Shown in pieces: positions 7,137 through 40,418 of a stretch of 64,000 bases of DNA. Numbering within the stretch: the first letter of the stretch is position 1; the number at the start of each line of letters is the position of its first letter. The translations under genes were made by a program, and so were the position numbers. The stretch lies in the NCBI RefSeq assembly GCF_053078305.1, contig NZ_CP166879.1. One strand, 5' to 3'. The notes below the pieces were generated by a model. It saw nothing but the letters and a program-made list of their open reading frames with translations, was not told the origin of the DNA and searched no databases.

Positions 7137-8249
7137 ATGAAGACATTTTCCCTGCAAACCCGTTTATTCAGCGGTCCTGGAAGTCTGAAAATGCTGGACC
7201 GCTTTACGAACAAACATATCTGGATTATCTGTGACGGTTTCCTCTCGCGTTCACCGTTGATTGACACCTTACGTAGTTCGTTACCAGGCAACAATCGCAT
7301 CAGCATTTTTAGCGAGATAACACCGGATCCGACAATCCAAACCGTGGCGCGCGGTATTGCACAGATGCAATCTCTACGTCCTGATGTGGTAATCGGTTTT
7401 GGCGGCGGCTCGGCGCTGGATGCGGCAAAAGCGATTGTCTGGTTCAGTCGCCAGTCTGGCATAGAAATTGAAACCTGTGTTGCCATCCCTACCACCAGCG
7501 GCACAGGCTCAGAAGTTACCAGTGCCTGCGTCATTAGCGATCCAGAGAAAGGTATTAAATACCCTTTATTTAACAATGCGCTATATCCCAACATGGCTAT
7601 TCTCGACCCGACGCTGGTGGTTAGTGTACCGCCGAACATCACCGCTAATACCGGAATGGATGTGCTAACTCACGCGCTGGAAGCATATGTTTCGCCGCAC
7701 GCAAGCGACTTCACTGACGCTCTGGCAGAAAAAGCAGCACAAATCGTCTTCCAGTATTTGTCTGTTGCGGTACAAAAAGGCGATTGTCTGGCGACACGAG
7801 GAAAAATGCATAACGCTTCGACACTCGCCGGCATGGCCTTCAGCCAGGCGGGGCTTGGCCTTAACCATGCTATTGCCCATCAACTCGGTGGACAGTTTCA
7901 CCTGCCGCACGGACTGGCGAACGCACTATTACTCAGTGCAGTCATTCGTTTCAATGCACATGATTCGCGGGCAGCAAAACGCTACGCCCGGTTGGCTAAA
8001 ATTTGCCATCTATGTCCCCCCGACGCTAATGACACAGTCTGTCTGGATGCACTCATCCATCATATTGAAGAACTTAAGAAGTGCTGTGAAATGCCTGGAC
8101 TGTCGGAAGCACTGAAACAGGATAAGCAAAACTGGTCACAACGGATCCCGGCGATGGTTGACGCTGCCCTGGCGGACGTCACCCTGAAAACAAATCCGAG
8201 AATCGCTGATGCCAGCTCCATCCAGGAGTTACTTGAGGAGTTGCTATGA
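7137..8249 (+). CDS. pduQ: 1-propanol dehydrogenase (iron-containing alcohol dehydrogenase)
   Basis: 370 aa; Fe-ADH motifs (GGGSALD, HAIAHQLGG). Confidence 0.9.
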   Translation: MKTFSLQTRLFSGPGSLKMLDRFTNKHIWIICDGFLSRSPLIDTLRSSLPGNNRISIFSEITPDPTIQTVARGIAQMQSLRPDVVIGFGGGSALDAAKAIVWFSRQSGIEIETCVAIPTTSGTGSEVTSACVISDPEKGIKYPLFNNALYPNMAILDPTLVVSVPPNITANTGMDVLTHALEAYVSPHASDFTDALAEKAAQIVFQYLSVAVQKGDCLATRGKMHNASTLAGMAFSQAGLGLNHAIAHQLGGQFHLPHGLANALLLSAVIRFNAHDSRAAKRYARLAKICHLCPPDANDTVCLDALIHHIEELKKCCEMPGLSEALKQDKQNWSQRIPAMVDAALADVTLKTNPRIADASSIQELLEELL

Positions 8250-9601
8250 ATGTCGCGCTGAATGCAGAGACTGCTGATTACGATGCGCAAACCATTCGTG
8301 AGCGAGTGCGTGCAGCCGGTGTGGTCGGTGCCGGAGGCGCTGGTTTCCCGACACATGTCAAACTGCAGGCTCAGGTGGATATTTTTCTGGTCAACGCTGC
8401 AGAATGTGAACCAATGCTAAAAGTTGACCAGCAGTTAATGGCTCTGCAAGCCAGGCGTCTGATTCGCGGAGTACTGTATGGAATGAAAGCAACAGGCGCC
8501 AGTGAAGGCATTATTGCACTGAAAGAAAAATACCAACAAGCAATCGCCGCATTAACGCCATTTCTACCTTCCACTATCAGGCTGCATATATTACCTGACG
8601 TCTACCCGGTGGGCGACGAAGTATTAACTATCTGGATGGCGACGGGTCGTCGTGTGCCTCCTGCCGCGCTTCCTGTCAGCATTGGGGTCGTTGTTAATAA
8701 CGTTCAGACTGTACTTAATATCGCCCGCGCCGTCGAACAGCAGTATGCGGTTACTCGTCGGACGCTGACCATTAATGGCGCGGTAGCAAAGCCAATAACG
8801 CTGACCGTACCGATTGGGATCTCGTTACGTGAAGTGCTGGCGCTGGCGGGAGGCGCTACCGTGGAAGATCCCGGTTTCATTAGCGGTGGCCCGATGATGG
8901 GGGCGTTGATCGGTTCACTGGACAGTCCGGTAACCAAGACTACTGGCGGCCTGTTAGTGTTACCCAAATCTCACCCGCTGATCCAACGACGTCTACAGGA
9001 CGAACGTACCGTACTTACGGTGGCGAAAACTGTCTGTGAGCAGTGCCGATTGTGTACCGATCTCTGTCCGCGTCACTTAATTGGTCACGAATTATCACCT
9101 CACCTGTTGGTACGTACTGTCAATTATCAACAGGTGGCCTCGCCACAACTTTTACTCAGCGCCTTGACCTGTTCAGAATGTAATGTCTGCGCCAGCATAG
9201 CCTGCCCGGTTGGAATCTCACCCATGCGCATTAATCGCATGCTCAAGCGCGAACTGCGTGCGCAAAACCTTCACTATGAAGGACCACTCAAACCGGTCGA
9301 TAAGATGGCGAAATACCGTCTTATCCCGGTGCAGCGACTGATAGCACGCCTGGGCTTATCCCCATGGTATCAGGCAGCACCATTCGATGCAGCCGAACCA
9401 CAACCGGAAAGAGTCACGCTTTTATTGCACCAGCATATCGGTGCAACTACCCTGCCCTGCGTGCAAAAAGGCGAACACGTGGTTCGGGGACAGCGTGTGG
9501 CTGATGTTCAGCAAGGCACGTTAGGCGCGCCCATTCACACCAGTATTGACGGCACGGTCTGTAACGTCACAGAACACTCCATCACGGTGGTAAGAGGTTA
9601 A
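8246..9601 (+). CDS. pduS: Cobalamin reductase (RnfC-like flavoprotein with 4Fe-4S clusters)
   Basis: 451 aa; two CxxCxxCxxxCP ferredoxin motifs; overlaps pduQ stop. Confidence 0.85.
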
Positions 9602-9603
9602 CC

Positions 9604-10158
9604 ATGTCTCAGGCAATAGGTATTTTAGAACTCACCTGTATCGCCAGAGGGATGGAAACTGGCGATGCCATGTTGAAAAGTGCGAATGTCAGTCTACTGG
9701 TCAGTAAGACGATTTGTCCGGGTAAGTTCCTGCTCATTCTGGGCGGTGAGGTCAGTGCAGTCCAGCAGGCAATCGAAACAGGAGCCTCTCTGGCCGGTGA
9801 AATGTTAGTTGACAGTCTGGTGCTACCCAACATCCATGCCAGCATCCTGCCAGCAATCAGCGGGCTGAATAGCGTGGTTCAGCGTCAGTCGGTGGGGATT
9901 GTTGAAACCTGGAGCGTGGCTGCCTGCATCAGCGCTGCAGACCGAGCCATTAAGACATCCAATGTAACGCTGGTCCGCGTCCATATGGCATTCGGCATTG
10001 GCGGTAAATGCTACATGGTGGTCGCAGGGGATATCTCCGACATCAACAATGCGGTTGCTGTTGCCAGCGAAAGTGCAGGTGAGAAAGGTCTCCTGGTTTA
10101 TCGTTCGGTTATTCCACGCCCGCATGAAGCCGTGTGGCACCAGATAGTGGAGGGTTGA
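9604..10158 (+). CDS. pduT: Tandem-domain microcompartment shell protein (BMC-T)
   Basis: 184 aa with two BMC domains. Confidence 0.85.
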
Positions 10159-10508
10159 TGGAAATACAAAATACTACAGAACGACGGATCCAGGAATATG
10201 TCCCTGGTAAACAGATCACACTGGCGCATCTGATAGCTAATCCAGGTAAAGATCTGTTTAAAAAGCTGGGACTGCCAGACACTATTTCAGCTATTGGTAT
10301 CCTGACCATCACGCCGGGAGAAGCTTCCATTATTACCTGTGACATTGCGACAAAATCCGGTGCAGTAGAAATTGGCTTTCTTGATCGGTTTACCGGTGCA
10401 GTTGTCCTGACCGGCGATGTTTCTGCCGTTGAGTACGCACTGAAACAGGTCACCAGAACGCTGAGCGAGATGATGCATTTTAGCGTCTGCCCAATAACAC
10501 GGACTTAA
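10158..10508 (+). CDS. pduU: Microcompartment shell protein
   Basis: ATG at 10158 overlaps the pduT stop by 1 nt (TGATG); [19 protein letters not shown]... as in PduU; ORF-track start at 10134 is an extension. Confidence 0.8.
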
Positions 10509-10512
10509 CGCA

Positions 10513-12146
<1,634 letters not shown>

Positions 12147-12363
12147 AAAAATGACAGTAGCGTAATACACCGCGTTTTGTGAATAACTTAGTCATGGTTG
12201 GATCACCAGCAGTGAGATACTACTGGCCTGCCATATCCCACAATATCTTACCTGACTCGATAACTGCCAGTCATGCGTGTCGTTACGGGGAAGTCATCTT
12301 CACAGGGATTTTCAGTCAGTTAGCATTACCAACATCCATTCACCAAATTACCGGAGATAATCG

Positions 12364-12697
12364 ATGTCAAAACCCCGATGGACCATTGAACAGAAAAGGC
12401 AGCACGTTGCTGCATGGTGCGCCAGTGGTCTTACACGCCAGTAATACTGTGAACTCAATGATATTCCCTTCACATCACTTCGCGAATGGACGCAGGATGT
12501 CGCAAAAGCTGAACGCCGGGCAAATGAACTGACCGTTCTTCCCGTTCATAATTGCACCACTACTGCATGCTGATGTACCACAGCCCGTCACGAATGAGCT
12601 AGTCACGCTCTTCCTTCCCGGTGGAGTACGGATGTGCTGTCAGCCGTCACAACTTACCGATGTCTTCAGGACACTCAAATATGCTCAGTCCTGATAA
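12364..12697 (+). pseudogene. IS66-family orfA, disrupted by in-frame TAA and a frameshift
   Basis: ATG 12364 gives MSKPRWTIEQKRQHVAAWCASGLTRQ, then TAA at 12442-12444, then the same frame continues YCELNDIPFTSLREWTQDVAKAERR...; a +1 frame then runs to overlap the orfB start. Confidence 0.4.
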
Positions 12698-21755: not shown

Positions 21756-22289
21756 CTAACTAATACATCGACTCAGCGCCAACCTGAGACCAGCGCCGAT
21801 CTCTTCAGGTGAACTATCTGCTGGCAAGATAACATTATCGCTACCGCCACGTCCGGTACCTCCCCATTCTTCCAGCTTCTCATGGCGCGATGGTGAGATT
21901 GTAATTACGCCGTTAGCACAAGAGATATCACAGCTTTTCATACCTTTAAATAAGGCTTTTTTAGTTTTATAACCATACTGCATCATGAGTTTCTTTACCC
22001 AATCAGCATAGCGTTCTGCTGTACACTTAAAGTCATAAAGCTCCATATCGAATGTTGCTTCAGGGTGTATCCATACATCTGTATGGGGAGCGGGTAATAC
22101 AAAGCGACTATGAGCCAACGCATTCTTCACCATAATACCTAACTCATTATCACCAATATCAGGTGTATTCAGTTACTGAACTCCTTGAGGATCACATCGA
22201 TTACTACTGTAACCAGAATAAGTTTCAACACAGATAAAATCTGCATTCGCTTTTACAGAGGCCCATGCCGTTTTTACTATGTTATTCAT
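21756..22289 (-). pseudogene. cdiI: Orphan CDI immunity gene (module o2), interrupted by an in-frame TAA
   Basis: ATG at 22289 (AGGTGA upstream), 1 nt after the toxin stop; 38 codons, TAA at 22173-22175, then the same frame continues for about 138 more codons. Confidence 0.5.
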
Positions 22290-22290
22290 A

Positions 22291-23176
22291 TTATTTCACC
22301 TGAGTTACCTTAACACCCTGACTTTTGCCATACTCAACAGCCCTGTTTATTTCCGTCCATTGAGTTTTCGTCGTATTGGCAGGGACAGCTAATCTCACAT
22401 CTTTACTGGAAATCATTGATGAGTCAATATTAACGCCAGAAAGTGATGCTTTCTCAAATTTCGCTGCCGCATCAATATTTCCTTTAAGCGAATAATAAAC
22501 CTGATTGGGATTAGCCAGTTTTGCCATCGTCTGGGTATCCATTGATTTAGCACTTACAGCAACTCTTGATGCTTCATCATAATAATCAAACGTTTTAAAG
22601 TTTTGCGGTAATCGCGAATTTGCCGGAAGTGTGGTTCCCACATAATCCTCCACGGCATCCCCTGCTTCATATTACCCTGACCCCACTTCAACCCGCTCTA
22701 TGAAGCGCTGACTGTGGCTGTTGCTGTATTGCGACGCATAAAGGAAATAGCTGCAACGCCGATATCCTTTGCCAATAGACCTAATGAAGCCACTGCCACT
22801 TGATTTTCAGGGGCTGACACAAACAGCGCATATTTCATCCATTCCAGACTATTCATGTCTATTTTAGCCAAATCCTGACCATTCCATTGCTGAACGTAAG
22901 CTTTTGCCTCATCACTGGTCATGACATCAGCGCCAATACTTCCTAGCCAACCAGGACGCTCTGTCATATCAATACCGCCTAAGGCAACCTCTTTATCCCA
23001 GCCCATAGCTGTTAAAGGATGATTTTCCAGACGTTCATCAACGATGGCACTATGCTCGTCACTGACTTTTTTCCATTTATCAATAACATTCTGACAGTCC
23101 CCCCCAATTTTCGGCAGTTTGTCAGCTCTTTATCAAATTCGACGGCCTGAGAACTACTCAGATAATTATTCTCAAC
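22291..23176 (-). pseudogene. cdiA: Orphan cdiA-CT toxin module (o2): VENN motif, no start codon, frameshifted
   Basis: Begins NVVENNYLSSSQAVEFDKEL right after the cdiI-o1 stop; frame breaks at a G7 homopolymer (23099-23105) and again before the C-terminal domain at 22653. Confidence 0.6.
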
Positions 23177-23182
23177 AACATT

Positions 23183-23416
23183 TCAGAACCCCTTAACTTT
23201 CATGATATGCAACAAACCAATACCCAAACCTAAGATCCCACCCCCATACACACTCATTTTTAACAGTCTAGAAAACTGAAAAACTTCAAATGATATTGGG
23301 GCATTCAAATAAAAATACATAAATATCTCCAGAAGAAGATAAAAAATCGAACCGACTATAAACAAACCAAATATGCATACAGTCATTAATAAGACAACAA
23401 TAAGGAAGCTCTTCAT
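23183..23416 (-). CDS. cdiI: Orphan CDI immunity protein (module o1), small membrane protein
   Basis: 77 aa, two hydrophobic helices; ATGA overlap with the preceding toxin ORF; GGAGG 7 nt upstream. Confidence 0.55.
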   Translation of the reverse strand: MKSFLIVVLLMTVCIFGLFIVGSIFYLLLEIFMYFYLNAPISFEVFQFSRLLKMSVYGGGILGLGIGLLHIMKVKGF

Positions 23417-24735
23417 TTCCCAGCCTCCATTGCATCTTTCTTTTTCTGGATAATGGAGCTTCCAAACTCAGATGATAAACTACCACCCGCATTACCCACA
23501 GCACCAGGGATCTTACTCGGTACCATTTCTTTAGATAGACCTAACTGCCCTTTAACTTCAGTATATTTTAGTAGAGTCGGATCGAATTTAGGATTCCAGC
23601 CATCGGTTATCCATTTAGCGATTGTATTTGCAGCAGGCTTGACCACATAATTGCCAACCCCATATCCAAACCCGGCCCCCGCTCCATTTGTAATCGCCCC
23701 AGTAAAAGGATCATCTCCGTTTATAGCGTTGGTTAATGCTCCACCTGCCGCATTCCAGGCTATTGTCCCTTTCCAGCCCTGCCCCATGGTTATCACATTT
23801 ATCCAGCCTGCTGCCACTGAGTTGACCCGGTTTATTTCACCACTATCTGCATACTGCATCCCGGCATTTGTCCCGGCACCAAGTAACCACATAGCTTGGG
23901 CACTCCCCGGTAACAGGGCTACGCTGCCTGTTGCTAATGCGGCTGCATAAGCTTTATTTTCAGCCTGTCCCCGCCTTACAGGCTTCACCGGAAGGATTAT
24001 CACTACAGGAGAGAACATCAGCGCCATGCTCTCTGGCTTTTTCCGTCTGGAGCCATTCACTGCCACCCAGCAGATTATTCTCAACAGCATTCTTCCCGCT
24101 TTGTGCTCCCACTGCTGCTGATGCGGTGCTGTTTCCGGTAAGACCTCCGGCCAGCCCTGCTGACACGGTTGCCAGCGTACTTATCGTCTGCTTCTGCTCT
24201 TCACTGAGGTCAGACAGCTTCACGCCAGGATACAGCATTCCGGCAATTGCTCTGGCTGCCAGTTCTCCTGTTGCGGCGCCTGCTGCACCGGCAGCAACAT
24301 TATTACCCTGCATTGCCGCTACTGCACCGCCCAGAATGGCGTGAGCAATGGCGTTTACTGCCGGATCTTTTTCTGTTGATTTCAGCAGGTGCGCCAGTTC
24401 CGGAGCCGAAGCTCCGGCCAGAGCACCCGCTAAATTACCCCCCGCCAGCCCCTGAAGCGCGGCCCGGATACCCCGCTGAATTTCACTGCCGGTACCATAC
24501 TTCGCCATTTCATCCCTGTAAGCCTGCGTGTCACGCAGTTTTGCCAGATATGCCTGCCGCTGCTCTTCCGTCGCATCCTCCGGAACAGGCCCATATTTAT
24601 CCTGCGCAGCCTTCAACGCATTCAGTTCCCCCTGCGTCCGCGCAATATCAGCCACCTGACTGCCTATGTCACTGATAAGCCCCACTGTCTACAGACGCTG
24701 CTGCTCTTTTTCCTTGTCAAAGATGGAAAAGCAAA
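23413..24735 (-). pseudogene. cdiA: Orphan cdiA-CT module (o1): retained pretoxin homology block, VENN, glycine-rich toxin domain; internal stop and frameshift
   Basis: Region up to GKNAVENN is homologous to the resident CdiA pretoxin region; in-frame TAG near the start; CT continues in a second frame (23960-24090 overlap) into a Gly-rich domain. Confidence 0.6.
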
Positions 24736-24770: not shown

Positions 24771-25034
24771 CTATTTGATTTTGCTTAAAATATTATTGAC
24801 TATCGGTATTACAGAACTAACCAATTGCTCTTCCTCAACTGTATACAAAAGCAATTCGATCTCATTCTCCGCATTAAATAACATTGTATGGAGCCACTTT
24901 TCCTCAACAGCAACAATTTGGCTTTCCGCAGCATAAATTTCTGATTGAATACTTTGTACCGTTATTTTCCCTTCAAGAAAGTTTTTACAAGAGTGTTGTA
25001 ACCTCTCGATCACCTCAGGATAAATCCAACTCAT
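24771..25034 (-). CDS. cdiI: CDI immunity protein
   Basis: 87-aa ORF whose ATG overlaps the cdiA stop (ATGA); AGGAG 6 nt upstream. Confidence 0.7.
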
Positions 25035-28000
25035 TGCCCACTCCTGCGAAGAATAGTAACAATAATATTACTGTTATTTTCAGTGACTACACCTACGTCA
25101 CCACTCCAATAAGTCGTTCTAGTTACGCCATTAACGACACTATTTTGAGGAGTTCCTTCTTTGATAACACTTTCAACCATATTCGGCGTTATATTTCTCC
25201 CTGGGCCAACTGTGCCGGCTGGAGAACCTAAACCAGATGGCTGCATTCTATCAACAGCATGTTGTGAATACAAACGATGACCTATTTGTGCATATTGTCG
25301 CCCATCTACTGTAACCTTTCGATAATTTTGCCAAGAGTCCCAAGGTAACTTTTCAGAACTATTAGGTACGTTTTCTGATGAGGTTTTCTCATTACGTTGC
25401 TCTATTGATTCATTATTCCTGGCGTTCTCCTCATCCTGCGGCTCCCATCCCCCCGGTGTTCCAGCATCTGCGCCACCAAGCTCAGCTTTCTCCTTGTCCG
25501 TAGCGCTCGCTACGTCTTTGCCCAGATTCGGCTGTTTGTTTTCGTCTGTATTGTCGCCATTCAGCACATGCCCCGGCCCCCGGGCACCATCGCGACTCGG
25601 ATCACGTACAGCACACTGTTCCCGTGAGCCTTCACAACCACCACCGGTATCCCAGCTATTATCATTCCCGGTATCCTTACTGGCATTACCTGTAGCACCA
25701 GCTATTGCTGCTGCCGTATTAGCTGCTGTTTCAGTGGCTATCACGTTCAGCATATTGTTTTCAGCCGAGTTCCTGCCTGCCTGTGCACCCGTACCGGCAG
25801 ACGTCGTACTGTTGCCGGCAAGCCCGCCCGCAATCCCTGAGGCAATGGTGGCCAGCATGCTGATTTGCTGACGTTCCTGTTCACTCAGGCTATCGGTACG
25901 ACCACCGTAGTAGTTATCAATGATATACCGGGCTGCAAGTTCACCACTGAATGCCCCTGCAGCACCGGAAGCCGCATTGTTTCCACCCAGTTGTGCAGCA
26001 AGCGCTCCCCAGACTGCGTGAGCCATCAGGTTTGCTTCCCGGTTATCGCCGGTGGCCTGTTTTATAAGCTGTGCCACTGCCGGATTCAGACCGCCAGCCA
26101 GTACCTGCCCCGGATTCCCTGCATTCAGTCCGCCCAGCACACCCGTGATGGCCTGTACCACCATCTGCGGCGTACTGCCCGTACCGTAGCCTTTCATGAC
26201 CTCTCTGTATTCCGGGGTCTCCCGCAACTGTGCATCGCTCATGCCAGGATGCTCTTTCCTGGCTGCTTTCATCGCTTCAGTTTCGCCATACGTCATGACG
26301 ATGTTACTCATCTGACCGCTAATCTGGCTGATAACCTGCGCTTCCTGAAGACGCTTCTGCTCTTTCTCCCTGTCAAATATCGGTGCAATGCTGCCGTTGG
26401 CATTTTCCGGGTCCCGGCTGAGCCCGGCAATACCCTGCATCTGACTCTCCTTATTACGGATAATGAGATTTCCGCCGCTGATGGCGGATGACGTGGTACC
26501 TTCAGCATGTCCACTGCTGCCGGACATACCGGTAAGTGCGTTCGCCGCACCGGCTATTGCATTTGAAGCCACCATCTGGCTGGCTGACATCCCTGAGCCA
26601 CCCGATAAACTGATTCCGGTATGGCTGGCTTTATAGTCTGCCTGGTTATGGATATCCGACCAGCCCAGCGTGCCGGTACTGAGGCTGTTTTTGTCATCCG
26701 TTGCCGTGGACGCAATTACCGCACCATTGAGCTGAGTGTGATTCCCCACAGTGACATCAAACCCGTCTTTTCCGGCGTAGATACCACTCTGTTCCCGGAC
26801 AGAATCGTAATTGCTTTTGATTTTGTCCTGACTGATGCTGGCATAGCCGCTGCCGGACATTGAGCCAAACGTGAAGCTGCCACCTGCAGCCACGCTGTTT
26901 TGTCTGCTGTCGTAACGGTCACTGTCCTGAAGACTCGAAATGGTCAGGTTATTACCCACATCCGCTGTGACTTTCTCACCACTGACCTGAGCCCCCGACA
27001 GGGTGGTATCACGTCCGCTTGTGAGGGAGACATTTTTACCCGCATCCAGCGTGGTTTCGGTCCAGGTCGTGCTGCTGCCTTTCTCACTGCCTTTGGAGCC
27101 GTTAATGCTGGCGAAGATACTGAGGCCCCCGCCATTGGTTCCACCACCAAAGCTGACGCCCACGCCGCCACCTTTGCTGCTGTTCTTCCCGGTGGTCTGT
27201 CGGGTGTCAGCGGCGGCAGCCAGCAGAATATCGTTCTGTGCATTCAGACTGGTGTCATTGCCGGACTTAATCTGGCTCCCGGTAATGAGAATATCGCCGC
27301 TGTTGTTATGGTCCTTATTTTTCCCCGTGGCAGTGACGGAGACATTGTTACCGGCGCTGAGGGTTGAGCCGGAGACGATATCGTGCTGATATTTCGTCTC
27401 AGACTTCGACTGCTGATGGTTGAGCGAAATGCTCACGCCGATACCATTATTCTGGTCAGCACTCTGTTGCTGCAGTCCGTGGTTAACACCGGCCTGTACA
27501 CCGGACAGAACCGCCTGTGTTCCTTTCAGTGCCGCCAGACGGCTGTCGCTGGTTTCTTTCGACTCCCGGGCCATGGTTGCAGCATTATTGATGGCACTGC
27601 CCACCGTGCCGGAAAGGGCAACCGTCAGCCCGCTTTTCTTCTGCTCAAATTTTTCGTCCACAGTACGACGGTCATGCCCCGGGTCAACCACCACACTGTC
27701 ACCGGTAATGCTGATATCCCGGTTCGCAATCACATCCGAACCGCTGATATGTACCTGTTTGCCCGCGGTAATACTGACATTACCGGCAGTGGAGCCGATG
27801 GTACTGGCACTCTGACTCTGCGTTGTCCCGGCTTCGCGGCGGTCGTGCGTTGTCTTACTGCTGCCAGTGGTGAAGCCAGTACCGCCGGTACCCGTCAGAC
27901 CGGATTTCTTCGTTTCCTTAAAGCGCCAGGACGTATCTGTACTGGTGGCAGCAAGAACATCAACATGGTTACCTGCCGCCAGTGACACATCCCGGTCAGC

Positions 28001-31000
28001 CACCACATCCGAACCCTGTACCGTCAGGTTATCACCGGCGTTAACGGTCACGCGATTCCCCGACAGCAGAGAGCCCTTCTCACGGGTGACGCTGTCTTCC
28101 GTGATGGTCCGGGTGGTCTGATGGCTGAGGAGACGGTTGCGGGTTTCCCCTGATTCACTGTAGTGATAATCACTTTCCGTGGCAGTACCCAGTACGATGT
28201 CATGACCGGCATTCACACGGATATCGCCCTTTGCCGTTACAGCAGTCGCAACTGAGGTGATATCCCGTCCGGCAGTAACCGTGATGTCACCGCCACTGGT
28301 CATGTCTGTTCCCTGCTGCCGGACCGAATCATGAACCGTCTTCATGCTGAAAGTGCTGTCGTGGTCACCTGCGCCTGTGGACTCCGCAGCCATGTTCACA
28401 TCCCGTCCGGCGCGGATATCCATACTGTTTTCAGCCGTAATACCGGCAGCCTGGCTGTTCACATCACGACCGGCGGAAAGCATCAGACTGTTCCCGGCAG
28501 TGACCGTGGGGGCCACGGCATGAGTTTCATACCACCCGGACCCGCCATAGCGACGACGTTCGCCGGCCTGTATCGCGTTCATGTTCAGGTCATTACCGGC
28601 GGACAGTAACACGCTGTCACCGGCAGAAACGGCGACACCGGTGATACTGATATCCCCGGCTGCGCCCATAAACAGTGAGTCCGTTGCCCTGACAGCAGCC
28701 AGCGGACCGGTATCCGTTCCGCTGAAATGGTTATATCCGTTGTTCATCGCCCACTGTTCTGTACGGGTGAGGTTACTGATGTTTCCGGTGGCGCTTTCCA
28801 GGTATACGGTTTTACCGCTGATGACTGAGCTGATATTGCCGATATCCCCGATGGCCTTCAGGTTCAGTGCACCACCGGCGTTTATCAGTCCGGCATTCAG
28901 GTTGTCGATACTACCTGTGCTGTCGAGCAGGAGGTCATTCTGTGCGTTGATGCTGCCGCCGCTGTTGGTAATATTGCCACCCGCAAGCTGCACGTTGTTC
29001 CCGCTGATAACGCTGCCATTATGAAGGGTGATATCTTCCGGAGACAGATACAGTTTCGGAACCATGACTGTCTGTCCGTTGATGGTGACGGACTCCCACC
29101 ACAGTATGCTTCTGGTCAGTTGTGCAACCTGCCCGGCGGTCAGCGACACACCAAAGGTCAGTCCGAGCGCTTTCTGTTGTGCTGCCGCGCTGTCCATCAG
29201 GTATTTCATCTGCGCCAGGTCAGAGCCTGTGCCGTTGATATAACGTGAGCCCGTCTGGTTCAGTATGACGTTACTGACATACCGGGTATCAAAAGCCGCA
29301 TCCCCCAGAAAGCGGTAATCTTTTTCCGGTTTCAGGCCAAGACGGTCAAGAATGTACGACGAGCCCAGAAACTGTTTTTCATCGGTATATGCCGGGTCTG
29401 TTTCTCGTGGTGCCTGTCCGGGTTGCATCCTGAGCAGGTCATACAGTCCGGCAAACAGACTGCTGTCCACCTTTCCGAGACCATCCAGTTTCGGGTTCAC
29501 CGTAATCAGATACGGACTGTCCGGGGCCGTGGACGGGACAAAATAACCATTGTTACCGGATGGCAGGGGATAGCTGCTTACACTTGCCCCGGACAGCGAC
29601 AGCGCACCCGGGATATCCTTCAGCGTATCCGGCAGCGCGTCATTCCATACAGGGCCGGTTATCCCGGTACCGCTTTCATTCAGCAGGGCTTCACCGCTCC
29701 CCCCCTGACTGACCGTCGGTGGTGTCAGGGAGTTCAGCGAAGGCACCGTTATCGTGTTACCTGCACCACCTGCCCGGGGCATGACAGTGGTATTACCGGT
29801 GTCAGTGGCAAAGCTGGCAGACACATCACCGGCAGCGCTGATAACCGCACGGTACTGACCTGCCGGAGAGGTGCCACTGGCTTCTGTCGCATCCGGCGAG
29901 ACCTGGCGATAGACCCTGTACCATGGCTCAGTAAACCACGCTTTGGGGAGTGAGCCGGAGGCAAGCCGCCAGACCGTTTCCTTTCCGGTGGTTCCCTCCT
30001 GCCAGCCCTGATTGTTCAGTGTGTCGCCACTCAGGGTCATACTGCCACCGGCGAGAATAAACGATGCCTCATTATCCAGTCGTCCTGCACGGATATGCAT
30101 ATCAGCACCGCCGGATATTCTGGCAGCATAGCCGGAGGCACTGACTGTCACCGTATCCGTATCGCCCGTACGGATACGGTATTCATCAGGTACCGTGGCA
30201 CCCTTACCCCAGTACACGGCCAGATATTCCACACCATCATGCCGGACAACACCCCACCACCGGTTATTTTCCGGAACCGGTGAAATCACCCCGTGACTGC
30301 TTCCAGGAATGACCTCATGGCTGGCCGAAATGGCATCCCATGAATTCAGCAGATGCGCCGTATTCATGGTGATATCGCCACGTGTGGTTTCAATATTACC
30401 GGAACGGTTAATGATTTCGCTGTTTGCCGTACCGCTGCTGTCCTTCTGTACCCACAGACTGTTGCCGGCCAGGATATCACCATGCTGGTTATGCAGACGG
30501 TCTGTAAACAGCTTCAGGTTATTCCCCGCATAAATCAGCGCACTGTTCAGCAGGGTACCGGCCACATTCATTGTCAGACTGCCTGCCGTGCCGGTAAAAC
30601 CACTGATGGTGATATCACTCCGGCTGTTCAGACTCACATCGCCACCGGCCTGAAGTGAACCCGGTGCGTTAAGGAAAAGACGCTGTGCGCTGAAAACACT
30701 GTTGTCTTTACCGGCAGTCAGCGTTCCATTGTTGGTGAATGCCTCTCCGGCACTGAGCATCATGGCATCACCCTGCATCACACCGCCGTTGGTGACGGCG
30801 TTCTGCGACGTGACGGAAAGGGTTTTCCCTGCGGCCAGGGTACCATGATTCGTGAGGGCAGCAATCAGTTTCAGTGTGACATCACCGGTGGCCACCACCT
30901 GGCCCTGACCACTGAAGTCCTGAACGTCAAGCAGCAGGTTGCCTGCACTGTACAGCCGCCCTGTACCATTTTGCAGCAGTGAACTGCCCTTGACGCCAAG

Positions 31001-34000
31001 CCATGAGGTTCCCAGCAGGGTACCGCTGTTGCTGAATGTGTGGTAATTCACCAGCAGGTCCGCACCCTGAAGCGTACCGGTATTATTCAGCGTGGTTCCT
31101 TTAACGTCGGCACTGCCGGTGGCAAGTACGCGTCCGCCGTTGACAGTATTCACCACATCCAGCAGCAGGGTGGCAGCCTGTACCAGTCCGCTGCCGGTGT
31201 TCGCCAGCACCTGCGCCGTCAGCGTGAGGTTACTGCCGGAGAGGATTTTGCCGTCGTTCTTCAGACGGTCAGTGGCGTTCAGGGAAACCCCGCCACCACC
31301 CTGTATCGTGCCCTGGTTACTCAGGGTCGCTGTACTGACATTCAGTGCATTCCGGCTCATCAGAACACCACCGGAACGGTTGTTCACGCCACCGGAGGCT
31401 GTCAGCGTCAGCGTTTCGCCCTGCAGATGCCCGCCGTTTGTGAGTTGTCCTGCCGTGATGGTGGTGGCATTTCCCTGTAATTGCCCGTCGTTTGTGACAC
31501 TGTCTGCCTTCAGCGTCAGCACACCTGCACTGAGCAGTTTTCCGCTCGCGTGATTGTTCAGCGTCTGATTCACCGTGAGCGTGAGAGCATCCACACCGGT
31601 GATGTCACCCGCACTGGTCAGTGAGTTCGCCTTCAGTGTCAGATTTTTTGCAATCCATTGTCCGCTGTTGCTTAAATTCAGTGCACTGAGCGCCATTTCA
31701 CCGTTCGAGGTGACTTTGCTGCCTGCTGTGCTGACAAGCTCACCCGTCAGACGTGCAGTCAGGCTGTCAGCCGCCTGGATCGCCCCGCTGTTTGCCAGAC
31801 TGTCTGCGGTGATCAGCACCCGTTTGCCCTGCCAGTATCCGGAACTGGTAATACTGCCTGCGGTGATTGTCAGATCGCCGCTGGTCAGCAATGAACCTCC
31901 GTTATTCATCAGCGCAGGTTGAGGGGATGTCATACGGGCGGCAAGCGTCAGTGTGGCGACCCCGGTGAGCGTGCCACTGTTGGTGACACTGTTCTGACGA
32001 ATCGTGACATGGTTACCCTGGACAGTGCCGCTGTTATCCAGTGAATTTCCATCAAGGGAGAGCGTGCCGACCGAAAGCAGACTGCCCCGGTTGTCAGTGG
32101 TGGCTGCTTTCAGCGTGGTGTCACCCTGGCTCATGATATCGCCGGTACTGGTCAACTGACCGGTTGCCGAAGCAGTAAGGTTACCGGTTGCCAGCACGGA
32201 ACCACTGTTCGCCCATCTGTCCGCCTGCACGGTGAGATTCTGTCCCTGCGTGGTCCCTGCGGTATTCAGTGTTTTACCCCGGAGGGAGAGGTCGCCCGCC
32301 GTCAGCCAGCGTCCGTGACGCCCCTGTGAGAGGGTGTCGCCTGCAAGCGCCAGTGCAGCGGCGCCCTGCAACAGGCCATCGCCATCCAGCGTGGTCGCCC
32401 TGACGTTCAGCGTGTCAGCGGTGATTTTACCCGGATTGCTGAGGGAGGCAGTGTTTAACGTTAAATCATTATCACCGGTGATAAGCCCGCTGTTGCGGAT
32501 GTCCGGTATATCCAGCGTCAGGTCTGCAGCACTGTACAGCGTGCCGTTCTGCTGATTATCAAGCCTCTGTGTGTTAACGGTGAGTGAGGCCTCCCCCTGC
32601 AACAGACCGCTGTTGGTCAGGGTCTGTGACTGTGTATTCAGGGCGGAACCAACAAGTACGCCGCTGCTGGTCAGTTCCGGCGCACTGAGGCTGAGCGACG
32701 GGGCACTGCTTTTCCCGCTGTGGGTGAGCTTTTCACTGGCGTTCAGGGTGAGGATGTCTCTGGCAGCCTGTGTTCCGTCAAGCTGTGCGTTCTGCACATC
32801 CACGCTGACACTGTTGCCCTGCGTCTGCGCAGTGGCCGTGGTCTTCAGACTGTTGCCTTTTACAGACACCGTGCTGCCCGCACTGGTTTCACCCGCCAGC
32901 GTGGAAGACGCGCTGTTCAGCATGAGGTTACCGTCACTGTGCGTGACTGATTTTTCTGTGGTGGTCAGTGTGTCTGCAGAAGCCACAAGTTCCTTTGCCC
33001 CGGAGAGGGTACCGCTGTTGTTTATCTGCGTGGCACTGAGCGTCAGCACGTCATCGCTGACGAGTCTGCCGCGGTTTTCAAGTGTACCGCTGACGGTAAC
33101 GAGGGCTCTGTCTTTTGCTCCGGCATCACCGGACAGTGTGGCATTGCGGGCGCTGATATCGAGTGTGCTACAACTTTTAATACTGCCGGTGCTGGTCAGG
33201 TCAGTGGCGGTGACTTTCAGGCCGTTCCCCTGGACGGCACCGGTATTACTGAATGTCCCGGTTTTCACCGTGGCATCGCGCCCGGCAACCAGTGTCCCGC
33301 CGTTGTTCAGGCTGCCGGAACTGACGGTGAGTGTTTTCCCGGCAACGCTGCGGCCTTTCAGTGTGGTATCATCGGTGGTGGTAAGGGTGACATTTTCAGC
33401 TGCATTCACGTTCCCGGAAGTCTGGTTCAGGTGCTGTGCACTGAGCATGGCGTTCTGTCCGGCAGTCAGTTCACCACCGTTCTGTACAATCTGCCCGGAT
33501 GAAGACAGCACCAGATTTTTATCCGTCACCAGACGGGACTGATTCAGTGTCAGTCCCGTTGTCCCGGTAACGCTGAGATTTCCTCCGGCTTTGTTATCCC
33601 CTGAAAGTGAGACATCCGTTCCGGTTACGGTGGTATTGCCGCCGGCAAGGCTGTTCTTCAGGACCAGTTTTCCGGAACTGCTCAGTATGATATCGCCCTC
33701 GCGGGCATAAAGGTTACCAAGATTAACCCCGACACCACTTTCAGTGGAGGTCAGATGAATACGCCTGGCGTACATTCCACCGAGCGCGCCGGTATCAACA
33801 GCAACTTTCGGCACATCACCTTCGCCCTTCAGGGCACTGACACGACCATCTGCAGTTACCCGGTTAGCGCCTGCAGTGACAGTTAAATCCTTCGCATGAA
33901 GCGCGGCATTCACTTCCGTTGCACGGGCAATAATGGATACGGCATCGCTCCGGGTGCCGTCCAGGCCCGCGCCATTGATGGTGATACTGCCTTCAGTCAC

Positions 34001-34525
34001 CTCCAGCGCCTGCAGGCTGCCGTCGGCATTCATCACAGGTTTGCCTGTGGTGAGCGTCGCGTGCGGCGTGTTGATAAAGCCACAGCCGTCACAGGTGATA
34101 CCATACGGGTTGGCAACCATCACATTCGCCGCTTTGCCGGCCACTTCCGTATAGCCCTGCAGCAGTGAACGCTTACCGCCGGTCACTTCGTTGATGATAC
34201 CCTTCGCTTCCCCGCCCGCTTTCAGGTTCGGGTTATTCTGTATCAGTCCACCAAGCTGCGTCGGATTAAGCTTACCGGTGGCATTATTGAGAATCAGCCC
34301 TTCCTTCCCGACGTTGTAATCCGTAAACCGGTTATGCGAAATCCCGGCCCCGTCCGGCGTGGCAATGTTCACGACCGGCACACCATTTGCCGCTTTATCC
34401 ATTCCGGCCCCGTTTTGTGGGGTGATGACGGCCCCCACAGCCGGTAACAACGGCTGCCCGGCGATAATTGTACTGATAAGGTAACTCAGCAGGCGGTAAG
34501 TGAAGCGAACAGGAGGCTGATGCAT
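25031..34525 (-). CDS. cdiA: Contact-dependent growth inhibition exoprotein CdiA (two-partner secretion, 3164 aa)
   Basis: N-terminal extended signal peptide and TPS domain; long Gly/Asn/Thr/Ser-rich filamentous repeat region; pretoxin region ending GRNSAENN (AENN in place of VENN) followed by a ~230-aa CT. Confidence 0.95.
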
Positions 34526-34537
34526 GGTAATAATCCC

Positions 34538-36310
34538 TTAAAACGCGACGGCAACGCGCCAGTAAACCGTGAGATGGTCAGGGGCAAGCCAGTCCGGGTA
34601 AACAAGAGGCAGTCCGGCGGTGAACGAACCGGAAACATGACCACTGGTGGTGCTGAGCCCGGCAGCAGCACCCCACAGCGTGCCGGACGAGTACGGGTCA
34701 TCGCTGTCAGAGTGCAGCCAGCCGCCGTCCAGTGCAGTCACTGCACGGACTGTCCCCACATATGGCAGGGAGAACAGAGACCAGGACAGCTCATTTCGCA
34801 GATAACCGCCGTTATTACCGGAGATATACTGCTCCTTAAAGCCACGCACTGAACTCTCACCCCCGAGGCTCAGTTGTTCCACACCATGAAGACGGTCCGG
34901 TGACCACTGGGCATAAGCGCTGGTCAGCCACCACACCCTGTCCGTGACGGGGCGCTGAAAACTGGCGCTTAATGACCATTTCCGGAACTGATTTACGGGC
35001 AGGTCTCCCCTTTTCCCGTGGTCGCTTTCTGCGCCGAACCAGGGCATCCCCCGTGTGAATACCGGATTCAGTGTTCCGACACCCCCCAGAAACTTGTGTG
35101 TGTGATTCAGCCCGACAGAAAATGAAGTGAGTTTACGGCTGCTGCCCTGAAGCAGAACATCATCCAGATAATTGTGAATAATGCGGTGCTGCAGACCTCC
35201 GGTCAGTGCTGTCTTCATGTCCCCGTTACGGAACAGGACATGCGACAGTCCCAGCCGGTGAGTCTGCAGGTCTCCCGTGGAACGCCACCGCCAGCCCCGG
35301 TTATCAATGGTGCTGAGGTAGTCACTCCATGAATACGTGTAATCCACCAGGGTATAGCCATACGGCAGACTGACACCGGCGGCAAAATTCCTCGCATCAT
35401 GTGACACCGAAAAGTCACTGCTCCGTCCCCCGCTGACAAACCAGTTGTCAGCCAGCCCCAGCGGATTATTAAAGGAAAGGACACCATTTAACTGCCCCGT
35501 ACCGGTATTCTTCTGTCCGCTGTTGTCGATGCCCACGCTCCCTGTGACAGGCCATCCCGGCGATGCCGTCAGTGTCACCACCGACCATCCCTCACGGTCA
35601 CCGGGCGATATTTCAATCTGTACCGGCTCCGTACGCAGACGGTTAATCTGCTCCATCCCCTGCTCAATATCCCGCAGGTTCAGAACCGCCCCCTCCATTC
35701 CCGGGAAAACCATCTTCAGGGTGCGGGCAGGAAGGTCAGCGCCTTCCGCCCGGATTTGCTGCAGCCTGCCTTCCATGACCGTTATGTGCAGTACGCCCCC
35801 TGAAAGGTCCTGCTCTGTCAGAAAGGCCCGGCTGGTGATATATCCCCGACGTATATAGCCGTCCGTCACGGCATCCGTGACCGTGGTCAGCCCCGTGATA
35901 TTCAGACACTGATTCACCCACGGTGCCACCAGTCTGTCGGTTTCTGCAGACGTCAGTCGGGTGGCCCCACTGACAACAATGCGTGACACCGTAAAGCAGG
36001 GACCTTCAGTACCGGCAGACATTTCCGGAGACGGCGTGATGGTCAGCGGCGCACTGCGCTCCAGCGCATCACGCTGACGCTGGTTTTCATCCAGCAACTG
36101 CTGCTGTTGCTGCTGAATTGCACTGCGGTCACCCGGAGACAGCATGGCTGCCGGAGACGAAAATGCGGGGATAAAAAAACCAGAAAAAACGGAGAGGGAG
36201 AGATAGCATATCCACGGAGAACCGCGCCGGAACATATCACAACAGGGGACAGACAACGCACGGGATAAAAGAGACGTTTTCGTCAGAATGTTGTTCTGCC
36301 GGCGCTGCAT
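34538..36310 (-). CDS. cdiB: Two-partner secretion outer-membrane transporter CdiB
   Basis: 590-aa ORF directly upstream of cdiA; TpsB/FhaC-like beta-barrel C-terminus; alternative start at 36235 gives a conventional signal peptide. Confidence 0.9.
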   Translation of the reverse strand: MQRRQNNILTKTSLLSRALSVPCCDMFRRGSPWICYLSLSVFSGFFIPAFSSPAAMLSPGDRSAIQQQQQQLLDENQRQRDALERSAPLTITPSPEMSAGTEGPCFTVSRIVVSGATRLTSAETDRLVAPWVNQCLNITGLTTVTDAVTDGYIRRGYITSRAFLTEQDLSGGVLHITVMEGRLQQIRAEGADLPARTLKMVFPGMEGAVLNLRDIEQGMEQINRLRTEPVQIEISPGDREGWSVVTLTASPGWPVTGSVGIDNSGQKNTGTGQLNGVLSFNNPLGLADNWFVSGGRSSDFSVSHDARNFAAGVSLPYGYTLVDYTYSWSDYLSTIDNRGWRWRSTGDLQTHRLGLSHVLFRNGDMKTALTGGLQHRIIHNYLDDVLLQGSSRKLTSFSVGLNHTHKFLGGVGTLNPVFTRGMPWFGAESDHGKRGDLPVNQFRKWSLSASFQRPVTDRVWWLTSAYAQWSPDRLHGVEQLSLGGESSVRGFKEQYISGNNGGYLRNELSWSLFSLPYVGTVRAVTALDGGWLHSDSDDPYSSGTLWGAAAGLSTTSGHVSGSFTAGLPLVYPDWLAPDHLTVYWRVAVAF

Positions 36311-36342
36311 GTTCTCCCCGTATTCTGGCCTGTGTGATGCCA

Positions 36343-36418
36343 GTGTAAATTCATGTCAGAAAGTGTCAGCGAGAAAATTTACACCTGAAAAAGTCTGTCA
36401 TGAAACAGTTTTATGACA
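36343..36418 (-). promoter_or_regulatory. Palindromic candidate operator sites upstream of cdiB
   Basis: 9-bp inverted repeat GTGTAAATT ... AATTTACAC (36343-36384) and near-palindrome TGTCATGAAACAGTTTTATGACA (36396-36418), 30-110 bp upstream of the cdiB start. Confidence 0.35.
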
Positions 36419-36825
36419 AGACATCAAAAAAATGTCAAAAACGTGATCTTTCTTCAGCTTTTCAGAATATTGAGTACCAGGAGTTCAATATCAATTCTGG
36501 GACACATATGCATTTACCATTAAAACCGGGCACAACAAGCTGTTCAGTCTCAATCCATACCCCGTGTTTTATCAATATCAGAATAAGAATATCTGCGGAT
36601 AAATAAAAAAGGAATGTCGAGGGAGCTTACCGCAGAGGGCTCTCCACCTCACAAGCCATTTACAAAAATGATACCGGCATATCTTTGGTCCCTGTCACAA
36701 CCAGACATTGACAATCCAATATAACCCCAAATATATTTCGGGTAAGAAGTCTGGGATTTATACAGATATACTGTCTGTTATTACTATTTAATTATATAAT
36801 TGTATTACATACATAAGAGGCACTA

Positions 36826-37215
36826 ATGAAACGTTATATAAAATGGTTTGCCATCACAATTTTTATCAGTATGTTGAGTGCCTGTGCCCGTACGGCCCCA
36901 GTGCAACAGATAAGCACCACTGTCAGTGTGGGTCATACTCAGGAGCAGGTTAAAAATGCCATTTTGAAAGCAGGTGCGCAGCGCAAGTGGATTATGACGC
37001 AAGTGTCCCCTGGAGTTATTAAAGCTCGCTATCAAACACGAAATCACGTTGCAGAGGTTCGTATTACATATACAGCTACCTACTATAACATCAAATATGA
37101 CAGTAGCCTGAATCTGCAGGCTTCTGATGGAAAAATTCATAAAAACTATAACCGCTGGGTGCGTAACCTGGATAAAGATATACAGGTTAACTTATCTACA
37201 GGAGCAACGTTATAG
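36826..37215 (+). CDS. Lipoprotein (lipobox LSAC), function unknown
   Basis: 129 aa; N-terminus MKRYIKWFAITIFISMLSAC; divergent from cdiB, upstream of the aryl-polyene cluster. Confidence 0.6.
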   Translation: MKRYIKWFAITIFISMLSACARTAPVQQISTTVSVGHTQEQVKNAILKAGAQRKWIMTQVSPGVIKARYQTRNHVAEVRITYTATYYNIKYDSSLNLQASDGKIHKNYNRWVRNLDKDIQVNLSTGATL

Positions 37216-37279
37216 TGATGCTGATATCGGGCTGGAATGGCCCGATAGTATTTAACTTTCTCTATAAGAATGGTTATAT

Positions 37280-38338
37280 ATGTACGAACAGGACACGCTC
37301 AGCGCACTGGATGCCATCACCGAAGCACAGCGGATTGCCTTTGCTCCTATGCTTTTCCAGGCAGCTTTGTGCCTGCGCAATGCAGGAATATTAGATTATT
37401 TGGATCAACAGGGTAAACAGGGAGCTCCCCTTAATGCGATTACTGAGCACACAGTCCTGAATGAATATGCCGTGGGTGTGTTACTGGATATGGGCTTAAG
37501 CGGGCGAATTATTACCTGTAAAGAGGGAATTTATTACCTGGCGAAAATCGGTCATTACCTCCTGCATGACACTATGACTCGCGTGAATATGGATTTCACC
37601 CAGGATGTCTGTTACCAGGGGCTCTTCTTCCTTGCCGATTCACTCAATGAAGGAAAACCTTCCGGGTTAAAAGTATTTGGCGACTGGCCGACGATATATC
37701 CGGCACTTTCGCAATTACCAGACGCCGCACGTGATAGCTGGTTTGCGTTTGATCATTACTATTCAGATGGCGCATTTAACGCCGCACTGCCTTATGTATT
37801 CGCCAACAACCCCACAACCTTGTACGATGTGGGTGGCAATACGGGTAAGTGGGCTTTGCGCTGCTGCAAATTCAATGAAAACATCGCCGTTACGTTATTA
37901 GATCTGCCACAACAAATCGTACTGGCGAAAGAAAATATCGCGAATGCAGGTTTTTCTGATCGCATAGATTTCCATGCGGTGGATATGCTAAGCGATGCCC
38001 CATTACCAGGCGAGGCTGATATCTGGTGGATGAGCCAATTTTTAGACTGTTTTTCACCCGAACAAATAATTAGCATACTCAGCAAAATTGCCAGCGTAAT
38101 GAAGCCTGGCGCAAAACTTTGCATCATGGAGTTGTTCTGGGATGCACAGCGGTTTGAAGCGACATCGTTTAGCCTGAATGCATCCTCACTTTATTTTACC
38201 TGCATGGCAAACGGTAACAGCCGTTTCTATAGTGCAGAGAAATTTTACGACTATCTGAATAAAGCAGGATTCCAGGTAGCAGAGCGTCACGATAATTTAG
38301 GCGTTGGGCATACACTTTTGATATGCCAAAAGAAATAA
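37280..38338 (+). CDS. SAM-dependent O-methyltransferase (aryl-polyene cluster)
   Basis: 352 aa; class I methyltransferase motif LYDVGGNTG; first gene of a co-directional 17-gene block. Confidence 0.8.
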   Translation: MYEQDTLSALDAITEAQRIAFAPMLFQAALCLRNAGILDYLDQQGKQGAPLNAITEHTVLNEYAVGVLLDMGLSGRIITCKEGIYYLAKIGHYLLHDTMTRVNMDFTQDVCYQGLFFLADSLNEGKPSGLKVFGDWPTIYPALSQLPDAARDSWFAFDHYYSDGAFNAALPYVFANNPTTLYDVGGNTGKWALRCCKFNENIAVTLLDLPQQIVLAKENIANAGFSDRIDFHAVDMLSDAPLPGEADIWWMSQFLDCFSPEQIISILSKIASVMKPGAKLCIMELFWDAQRFEATSFSLNASSLYFTCMANGNSRFYSAEKFYDYLNKAGFQVAERHDNLGVGHTLLICQKK

Positions 38339-38378
38339 TCGTCACTTAATAATTTTGGTTTACCGCGGGCGCGCGTTG

Positions 38379-39101
38379 ATGAAATTTGCATTAAATATTA
38401 CCAACTGGCAGGCACTGGCGCCTGGACTTAGCGATGTGCAGCAATGGCAAGCATGGTCGCGCCAGCCGTGGGCGATTGACCCTGCCGCGCCGTTGGCAAA
38501 ATTAAGTGAACTGCCAATGATGACCGCCCGTCGTCTCAGTTCAGGCAGCAAACTGGCTGTTGAATGCGGTCTGACAATGCTACGCCGCCATCAGCCAGAC
38601 GCTGTTTTGTATACCAGTCGTCATGGCGAACTGGAGCGCAATTACCGCATTGTTCATGCACTGGCAACCGAACAGGCGCTTTCTCCGACGGACTTCGCGC
38701 TTTCCGTACACAACTCTTCCGTGGGTAACCTGACCATTGTGGCCAAACAGCCGATCGTTTCGTCATCGCTTTCGGCTGGTCGCGACAGTTTCCAGCAAGG
38801 TTTGTGTGAAGTGCTTAGCCTGCTACAGGCGGGATACCAGCGCGTGTTGATGGTCGATTTTGATGGCTTTCTGCCTGAGTTCTATCATCCACAACTGCCC
38901 GCAGAAATGCCGACCTGGCCGTACGCCGTCGCGCTGGTGATTGAAGCTGGCGATGAGTGGCAATGTGAAACGCAGTCAGCCATTGCGGGTAATGAAACAA
39001 CACTGCCGCAAAGCATGTTGTTTTTACAGCACTATTTACAAAATGCGGACACATTTTCACTGCCTGGCGAGCGCGTACAGTGGCGCTGGAGCCGTGGATG
39101 A
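38379..39101 (+). CDS. Ketosynthase-like chain-length-factor protein
   Basis: ATG at 38379 (MKFALNITNW...); about 240 aa; ORF-track start at 38355 is an extension. Confidence 0.6.
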   Translation: MKFALNITNWQALAPGLSDVQQWQAWSRQPWAIDPAAPLAKLSELPMMTARRLSSGSKLAVECGLTMLRRHQPDAVLYTSRHGELERNYRIVHALATEQALSPTDFALSVHNSSVGNLTIVAKQPIVSSSLSAGRDSFQQGLCEVLSLLQAGYQRVLMVDFDGFLPEFYHPQLPAEMPTWPYAVALVIEAGDEWQCETQSAIAGNETTLPQSMLFLQHYLQNADTFSLPGERVQWRWSRG

Positions 39102-39919
39102 GTAAGCTGATGTCACGTCTGGAGTGGACCTGGCGACTGGTCATGACCGGGTTATGTTTTGTCCTGTTTGGTCTCGGCGGCCTGCTGCTTTCAGTCGTGT
39201 GGTTTAACATATTGTTAGTTTTGGTGTGGGATACTTCCCGCCGCCGTCGTTTGGCACGTCGCAGCATTGCCGCCAGTTTTCGCCTGTTTTTAACTGTCGC
39301 GAAAGGGCTTGGCGTGCTGGATTATCGTATTGATGGCGCTGAAATTTTACGTCAGGAACGCGGTTGCCTCGTCGTAGCCAATCATCCCACGCTGATCGAT
39401 TACGTGCTGCTGGCATCAGTCATGCCAGAAACTGACTGCCTGGTGAAAAGCGCGCTGTTAAAAAATCCTTTTCTTGGCGGCGTCGTGCAAGCGGCAGATT
39501 ATTTAATCAACAGCGAAGCTGAAACCCTGTTACCCCGCTGCCAACAGCGACTGGCACAGGGTGACACTATCCTGATTTTCCCCGAAGGCACACGAACGAA
39601 GCCCGGTGAAAAAATGACGCTGCAGCGCGGTGCAGCGAATATTGCCGTGCGCTGCACCAGCGATTTACGCATCGTGACGATCGGCTGTAGCGAGCATCTG
39701 CTGGATAAACAAAGTAAGTGGTATGACGTCCCGCCTGCCAGGCCGTTTTTTACGGTTGAAGTCCATGGGCGGGTAGAAATCAATAAATTTTACGATGCAA
39801 CTTCACAAGAGCCGACGCTGGCTGCAAGACAGTTAAACCGGCATCTTTTGCTTCAATTACAGCAAGGTTGTTTACCTCTCTCAGGAATAAATAATGCAAG
39901 CGCTTTATCTGGAAATTAA
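39098..39919 (+). CDS. Lysophospholipid acyltransferase (PlsC family)
   Basis: ATGA overlap with the previous gene; motifs NHPTLIDYV and FPEGTRT. Confidence 0.75.
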   Translation: MSKLMSRLEWTWRLVMTGLCFVLFGLGGLLLSVVWFNILLVLVWDTSRRRRLARRSIAASFRLFLTVAKGLGVLDYRIDGAEILRQERGCLVVANHPTLIDYVLLASVMPETDCLVKSALLKNPFLGGVVQAADYLINSEAETLLPRCQQRLAQGDTILIFPEGTRTKPGEKMTLQRGAANIAVRCTSDLRIVTIGCSEHLLDKQSKWYDVPPARPFFTVEVHGRVEINKFYDATSQEPTLAARQLNRHLLLQLQQGCLPLSGINNASALSGN

Positions 39920-40151: not shown

Positions 40152-40162
40152 GGAAAACCATC

Positions 40163-40414: not shown

Positions 40415-40418
40415 TTTG

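Follow-up and report, generated by a model that had tools for sequence, protein, structure and literature searches.

The run of seven G residues (G7) that interrupts the second orphan toxin gene of the cdi locus studied here is, with high probability, an inactivating mutation that has become fixed and is inherited, one of several in a degenerate orphan cdiA-CT/cdiI module that follows an intact cdiBAI operon of E. coli. The earlier note had proposed three readings of this tract, namely an ON/OFF switch of a toxin cassette, a fixed inactivating mutation and a homopolymer sequencing error. The second of these was borne out, since G7 was found in ten independent samples and the toxin/immunity pair carries at least five lesions.

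The sequence studied was a 64,000-nt window, that is the whole stretch of DNA analysed, from contig NZ_CP166879.1 of assembly GCF_053078305.1. According to the list of ORFs, the genes of the cdi locus are all encoded on the minus strand in the order cdiB, cdiA, cdiI, orphan 1 (o1) and orphan 2 (o2), so the o2 module lies downstream of the cdiB-cdiA-cdiI operon. The putative cdiB, a 590-aa ORF labelled by its position only (34538-36310), is found directly upstream of the main cdiA (25031-34525), which is intact and encodes 3164 aa. The identical product in two other loci (L010 and L015) bears the Pfam domains TPS, Fil_haemagg_2 and PT-VENN. The toxin region of the main CdiA is demarcated by AENN instead of VENN (SAENNML, with AENN at 25754-25765 on the minus strand, at about residue 2921), whereas both orphans have the canonical VENN. 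The cdiI gene of the main system (24771-25034) encodes 87 aa, and exact-protein look-up found this protein in thousands of collection blocks, always with a cdiA-CT adjacent.

The o1 module comprises a cdiA-CT fragment in two frames (23413-24685, VENN at 24085-24074) and an immunity gene for a 77-aa membrane protein (23183-23416), the TGA of which stands one codon upstream of the VVENN of o2 and in the same frame. It is followed by the o2 cdiA-CT pseudogene (22291-23179) and the o2 cdiI pseudogene (21756-22289). Further downstream a small ORF for a membrane protein of 93 aa (89 aa in calls elsewhere; 21456-21737, minus strand) accompanies the o2-type CdiI also in E. coli MSI001 and Proteus mirabilis, and the o2 module seems to move as part of a larger block that includes the region of this ORF. 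The region past the small ORF (about 20900-21460) has a weak SymE-toxin-like ORF, encoded on the opposite strand, and positions 20281-21075 are occupied by a DUF4376 gene. Elsewhere in the window, positions 8000-11000 contain a microcompartment-type cluster (pduT/pduU/eutP-like) whose identity to the E. coli pdu genes is only about 75 %, and the region 8000-16000 was not covered to 80 % by any complete E. coli genome. In contrast to positions 36000-44000, which are 99.7 % identical to E. coli H22, the left part of the window resembles a rare island.

A megablast search of complete E. coli genomes gave one close copy of o2, in E. coli MSI001, with 97 % DNA identity. No complete E. coli RefSeq genome contained the exact o2-bearing array, and only MSI001 had a close o2. 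In MSI001 the counterpart is uninterrupted, its 298 codons running from VVENN to the stop in a single open frame; the gene that follows, of 177 aa, carries the annotation of a CDI immunity protein. To identify the o2 products, the lesions of the window copy (described below) were mended in conceptual translations, referred to as the repaired toxin and the repaired immunity protein. The repaired toxin aligned over 286 residues with the EC869 CdiA-CT(o11) structure (PDB 4g6u_A, E=9e-137) and its nuclease domain matched 4zqu_A (E=8e-58). The repaired CdiI aligned end to end with the YPIII CdiI (PDB 4zqu_B, E=2e-87) and was closer to the YPIII than to the EC869 o11 type (E=6e-39 for the latter). 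The Pfam assignments on record for the o2 fragments are PF21483 (CdiA_helical) and PF21111 (CDI_toxin_EC869_like), both of which are also recorded for 120 homologues, and the two CdiI pieces are both assigned to PF07262. A comparison with NCBIfam left the repaired toxin and its repaired immunity protein without a family, and likewise the small ORF, the main CdiI and the immunity protein of o1. The exact-protein look-up of the 120-aa ORF of the nuclease fragment was empty, probably because gene callers picked another start.

Toxins of the EC869-o11/YPIII type, represented by the pairs of E. coli EC869/TA271 (CdiA-CT(o11)/CdiI(o11), 4G6U) and Y. pseudotuberculosis YPIII (CdiA-CT/CdiI, 4ZQU), are Zn-dependent PD-(D/E)XK DNases with the catalytic residues E177, D198, S209 and K211 (PMC9086364). 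The conceptual o2 translation has retained these four residues, all of them downstream of the three disabling toxin lesions. Judged from these alignments, the repaired o2 is an EC869-o11/YPIII-type toxin, a helical domain followed by the nuclease domain, with predicted Zn-dependent DNase activity, together with its CdiI. Unlike the EC869 o11 and YPIII toxins, the protein cannot be made from the copy present in the window.

The tract occupies positions 23099-23105, as C7 on the plus strand (GACAGTCCCCCCCAATTTT) and as G7 on the coding strand, where the frame is broken as noticed before, and it sits 24 codons past the VENN of the o2 cdiA-CT. The VENN frame, with VVENN at 23179-23165, is closed one codon upstream by the in-frame TGA at 23185-23183 and across the tract reads VVENNYLSSSQAVEFDKELTNCRKLGG (...NCRKLGG) on the minus strand. 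The earlier note had read the same ...CRKLGG and placed a stop right behind it; the reading was correct, but 28 out-of-frame codons (TVRMLLINGKKSVTSIVPSLMNVWKIIL) come before the stop at 23014-23012. The adjacent frame, DCQNVIDKWKKVSDEHSAIVDERLENHPL (DCQNVIDKWKK...), is open for 133 codons, in agreement with the approximately 130 reported previously. Its end at 22700-22698 is a premature TAG and not the natural end of the gene, and further lesions are found beyond it. Either of the two tract lengths proposed to restore a single frame does join the VENN frame to the next one, G8 giving KLGGDCQ and G5 giving KLGDCQ.

The VENN frame of o2 contains no ATG, GTG or TTG before the TTG at 23107, which abuts the tract, hence the fragment is not translated by itself. 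Only N-V-V-E-N-N is left after the stop codon of the o1 immunity gene, and therefore the homology with cdiA that could serve recombinational toxin swapping is about 9 nt (GAGAATAAT), versus about 600 nt of pre-VENN sequence in o1. The window contains five G7/C7 runs, whereas 6.8 +/- 3.7 were expected from dinucleotide-preserving shuffles; such runs are no commoner than chance and the tract is statistically ordinary. The contexts of the other four runs are unrelated to that of the o2 tract. One of them is an in-frame G7 inside the intact cdiA (29699-29705, minus strand, …VSQGGSGE…), which in L010 is replaced by GGGGGTG, a substitution giving Q G V S, so the cdiA tract varies by base change and not by length.

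The lesions of o2 were located by alignment to the intact MSI001 copy and to three further intact relatives. Besides the net -1 frameshift at G7, the toxin gene contains an in-frame TAG at 22698-22700, where all four intact relatives have GAG (Glu; codon 161, E>*). It is followed by a second -1 frameshift (GGG>GG) at 22650-22651, changing CCGTGGGAGGAT to CCGTGGAGGAT in the Trp codon right before the catalytic Glu (PW/EDYV). Close to the C-terminus, at 22304-22311, an in-frame deletion of 6 nt has converted GGTAACGGTAAC to GGTAAC and VKVTVTQVK to VKVTQVK. The fifth lesion affects the immunity gene: a TTA>TAA nonsense change in codon 39 of o2 cdiI (22173-22175) splits the 177-aa gene into ORFs of 38 and 125 aa. 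With G8 restored, only the first 160 codons would be read, corresponding to the helical domain without the nuclease, up to the TAG. Six substitutions in the N-terminal domain are specific to the window, and each of them changes the protein: Q>H, V>M, P>L, D>A, E>stop and I>S. Of these, P>L and D>A affect columns whose residue is conserved among 26 homologues to at least 90 %. The dN/dS ratio of o2 versus MSI001 was about 0.55, a value derived from only 18 differences, which is suggestive but not conclusive of a recent relaxation of constraint.

The four closest intact relatives used for the comparison at the tract were MSI001, a Proteus mirabilis cdiA (L021) and two SRA assemblies (L020 and L022); L020-L022 were recovered by cluster look-up and exact-protein look-ups and compared at the DNA level. 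Over approximately 100 nt flanking the tract L020, L021 and L022 are identical to the window and MSI001 differs at two positions. All four nevertheless have AAATCCGGAGGGAACTGT at the site itself (K S G G N C; SGGN, TCCGGAGGGAAC), with the interrupted run GGAGGG (CCGGAGGGAA), in place of AAATTGGGGGGGACTGT (TTGGGGGGGAC) found in the window. Since the relatives share the flanks and read SGGN at the site, the G7 tract is the derived state, separated from the relatives by three substitutions and the loss of 1 nt within about 10 nt. The residue at the N position is N in the nearest relatives and D in most distant homologues, the family consensus being SGGDCQ.

The derived state may have arisen by two routes. 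Three substitutions could have produced an in-frame G7, TTG GGG GGG AAC (TTGGGGGGGAAC), from which one A was then lost; alternatively, four substitutions could have produced G8, TTG GGG GGG GAC (TTGGGGGGGGAC), followed by slippage to G7. The claim that G7 causes the frameshift holds insofar as the shift occurs at or adjoining the tract, but the lost base is either a G of a former G8 or an A of the following AA. Gene conversion or template switching would call for a local donor of the derived patch AAATTGGGGGGGACTG, and the only match in the window was one trivial 9-mer.

Other carriers of the same array were collected by exact-protein queries with the truncated 125-aa CdiI fragment, the main CdiI and a 130-aa variant. 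This gave 11 loci (L010, L012-L019, L023 and L024) from 10 independent samples, comprising the NCBI assemblies GCA_001902685.1, GCA_000937855.1 and GCA_035788715.1 and seven Logan assemblies of separate runs. All 11 loci were 99.6-100 % identical to the window where they overlapped it and carried all the other lesions, and all had exactly G7, as read from consensus assemblies, which do not show minority lengths within a culture. At least three haplotypes are represented: the type of the window, one with A>T at 22752 (L010 and L019) and one with G>T at 25003 together with an A7 run (SRR5790144 and SRR5832168). Between L010 and the window there are 51 differences in cdiA but only one in the orphan region. 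The product of a G8 allele was absent from about 15 billion public proteins, and no JGI metagenome contig was hit when the flanks were scanned for with a tract of any length between them.

The A7 run of the third haplotype corresponds to an A6 run of the window (23067-23072, minus strand), 26 nt downstream of G7, and was found in L014/L023 and L024. With the additional A, the o2 frame is out of register for 11 codons and then restored, which leads gene callers to report the 130-aa ORF. Since the samples with A7 share G>T at 25003, A7 is an inherited haplotype and not noise; it is probably neutral, given the TAG downstream. In L012, a draft assembly (GCA_000937855.1), position 28985 is joined directly to about 26880, so that about 2.1 kb of cdiA (26881-28984) is missing and calls of 780 and 609 aa result. 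This gap may be a real deletion or a repeat collapsed in the assembly.

The proposal that slipped-strand mispairing toggles the o2 toxin between OFF (G7) and ON (G8 or G5) draws on the general knowledge that homopolymeric G tracts can slip. It also agrees with the joining of the two frames at either ON length, with the fit of the G8 reading KLGGDCQ to the consensus SGGDCQ and with the change of A6 to A7 in two samples, which shows that homopolymer indels do happen at the locus. The tract itself, in contrast, did not vary in length in any of the 11 loci, in spite of the three or more haplotypes among them, the G8 product was not met in the protein collection and the metagenome scan was empty. 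The closest intact relatives have GGAGGG and no tract, o2 has no start codon and its cognate immunity gene is broken, and the abundance of G7 runs is that of chance. Moreover, the ON length would still lead to the TAG 133 codons on, ahead of the second frameshift and of the whole nuclease domain. The literature searched on CDI and on phase variation or homopolymers treated these topics only separately, with no paper tying CDI orphan toxins to homopolymer switching. A switch at this site is consequently considered extremely improbable.

The same low standing is given to an error of sequencing or assembly, by which the true genome would have G8 and the gene would be in frame. Some platforms typically undercall a single base in runs of at least seven, and the second frameshift likewise falls in a G run (GGG>GG). 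Against such an origin, the same G7 is present in the three NCBI and seven Logan assemblies, made from separate sequencing runs, and the site differs from the relatives by three substitutions in addition to the indel. Two nonsense substitutions and a 6-nt deletion are among the other lesions and are not homopolymer artefacts, and the other long ORFs of the window are intact, including the 3164-aa cdiA with a G7 of its own; an undercall at the tract is thus scarcely credible. Programmed -1 ribosomal frameshifting or transcriptional slippage on G7 could in principle yield a full-length product, as a -1 shift on G GGG GGG would link both frames. Such recoding was rejected as having practically no chance of being correct: the VENN frame has no initiation codon upstream, the downstream frame meets the premature TAG and then needs a second shift, and the intact homologues are single-frame genes without a slippery run.

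A fixed inactivating mutation best accounts for the tract. The o2 module formerly encoded a Zn-dependent DNase toxin of the EC869-o11/YPIII type, with its helical entry domain and nuclease, and the cognate CdiI. It has since drifted, accruing the cluster of changes that produced G7 with its net loss of 1 nt, the TAG, the second -1 shift, the 6-nt deletion, several substitutions of conserved residues and the nonsense codon in cdiI. At an earlier stage the shift at the tract may have been the sole defect of o2. As the lesions are common to every independent assembly with the array, we infer that the tract now does nothing and is a mutational scar in a pseudogene. Low-level slippage at G7 within a culture would accordingly have no functional consequence and give no phenotype.

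The lesion of o1 could be placed by means of E. coli M19, whose intact cdiA-CT is 97.4 % identical; a 431-aa gene (L011) tried as comparator was too diverged (82 %) to place the indel. An additional G is present in o1 at about 23975, and position 23968 shows G>A (TGTAAGCGGGGGCAGGC in M19 versus TGTAAGGCGGGGACAGGC in the window, 23960-23980, minus strand). The fragment is thereby split into ORFs 24685-23960 and 24090-23413, and the 77-aa membrane immunity gene looks intact. Since o1 is also frameshifted, the whole orphan array is decaying, with the main cdiA still intact.

In both orphans the early lesions are clustered at G-rich sites: three substitutions and the -1 change within 10 nt, 24 codons past VENN, in o2, and the +1 G and G>A 7 nt apart, about 35 codons past VENN, in o1. 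These clusters, taken with A7, might reflect a recurrent process instead of independent random decay, for instance error-prone or templated repair at G runs. Alternatively, selection might silence the orphan toxins while the cassette is kept as recombination stock, with occasional compensatory reopening. A recurrent process of either kind is regarded as very unlikely.

Homopolymer phase variation is characteristic of the contingency loci based on simple sequence repeats (SSR) in Neisseria, Haemophilus and Campylobacter. The o2 site resembles them in that a G run lies in coding-like sequence and its length sets the reading frame. It differs from them in showing no length polymorphism among the 11 loci, no conservation of the tract in orthologues, no translation start and no functional ON state.

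Another likeness is to the orphan cdiA-CT/cdiI modules found downstream of cdiBAI, which in E. coli EC869 occur in arrays with as many as 11 members (Poole et al. 2011, PMC3150448) and in which the cdiA-CTs are generally without initiation signals (PMC3150448; PMC9086364). Like those orphans, o2 is located downstream of cdiA/cdiI, begins at VENN without a start codon, has its cognate cdiI next to it and stands in tandem with another orphan. The CdiI homologue (PF07262) follows the toxin immediately but is interrupted by TAA. The orphans tested in PMC3150448 were active toxins with working immunity genes, whereas in o2 neither partner is intact, the toxin having two frameshifts, one nonsense codon and one deletion and the immunity gene one nonsense codon, so that with five lesions relative to MSI001 the pair could not function even if expressed. 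A further difference from those orphans is the near absence of pre-VENN homology for recombination with cdiA, with only VVENN following the preceding stop.

The tract is a scar in a multiply disabled orphan pair of a well-characterised toxin family. For the region 23179-21756 the proper annotation is an orphan cdiA-CT/cdiI pair, of the EC869-o11/YPIII DNase type, that has been pseudogenised, and not a phase-variable cassette. When a homopolymer breaks a frame, a switch should be proposed only after the downstream sequence and the intact relatives have been checked. The decay of an orphan CDI module can be complete and extend to its immunity gene, which for this lineage limits the view of such modules as a reservoir of toxin and immunity genes.
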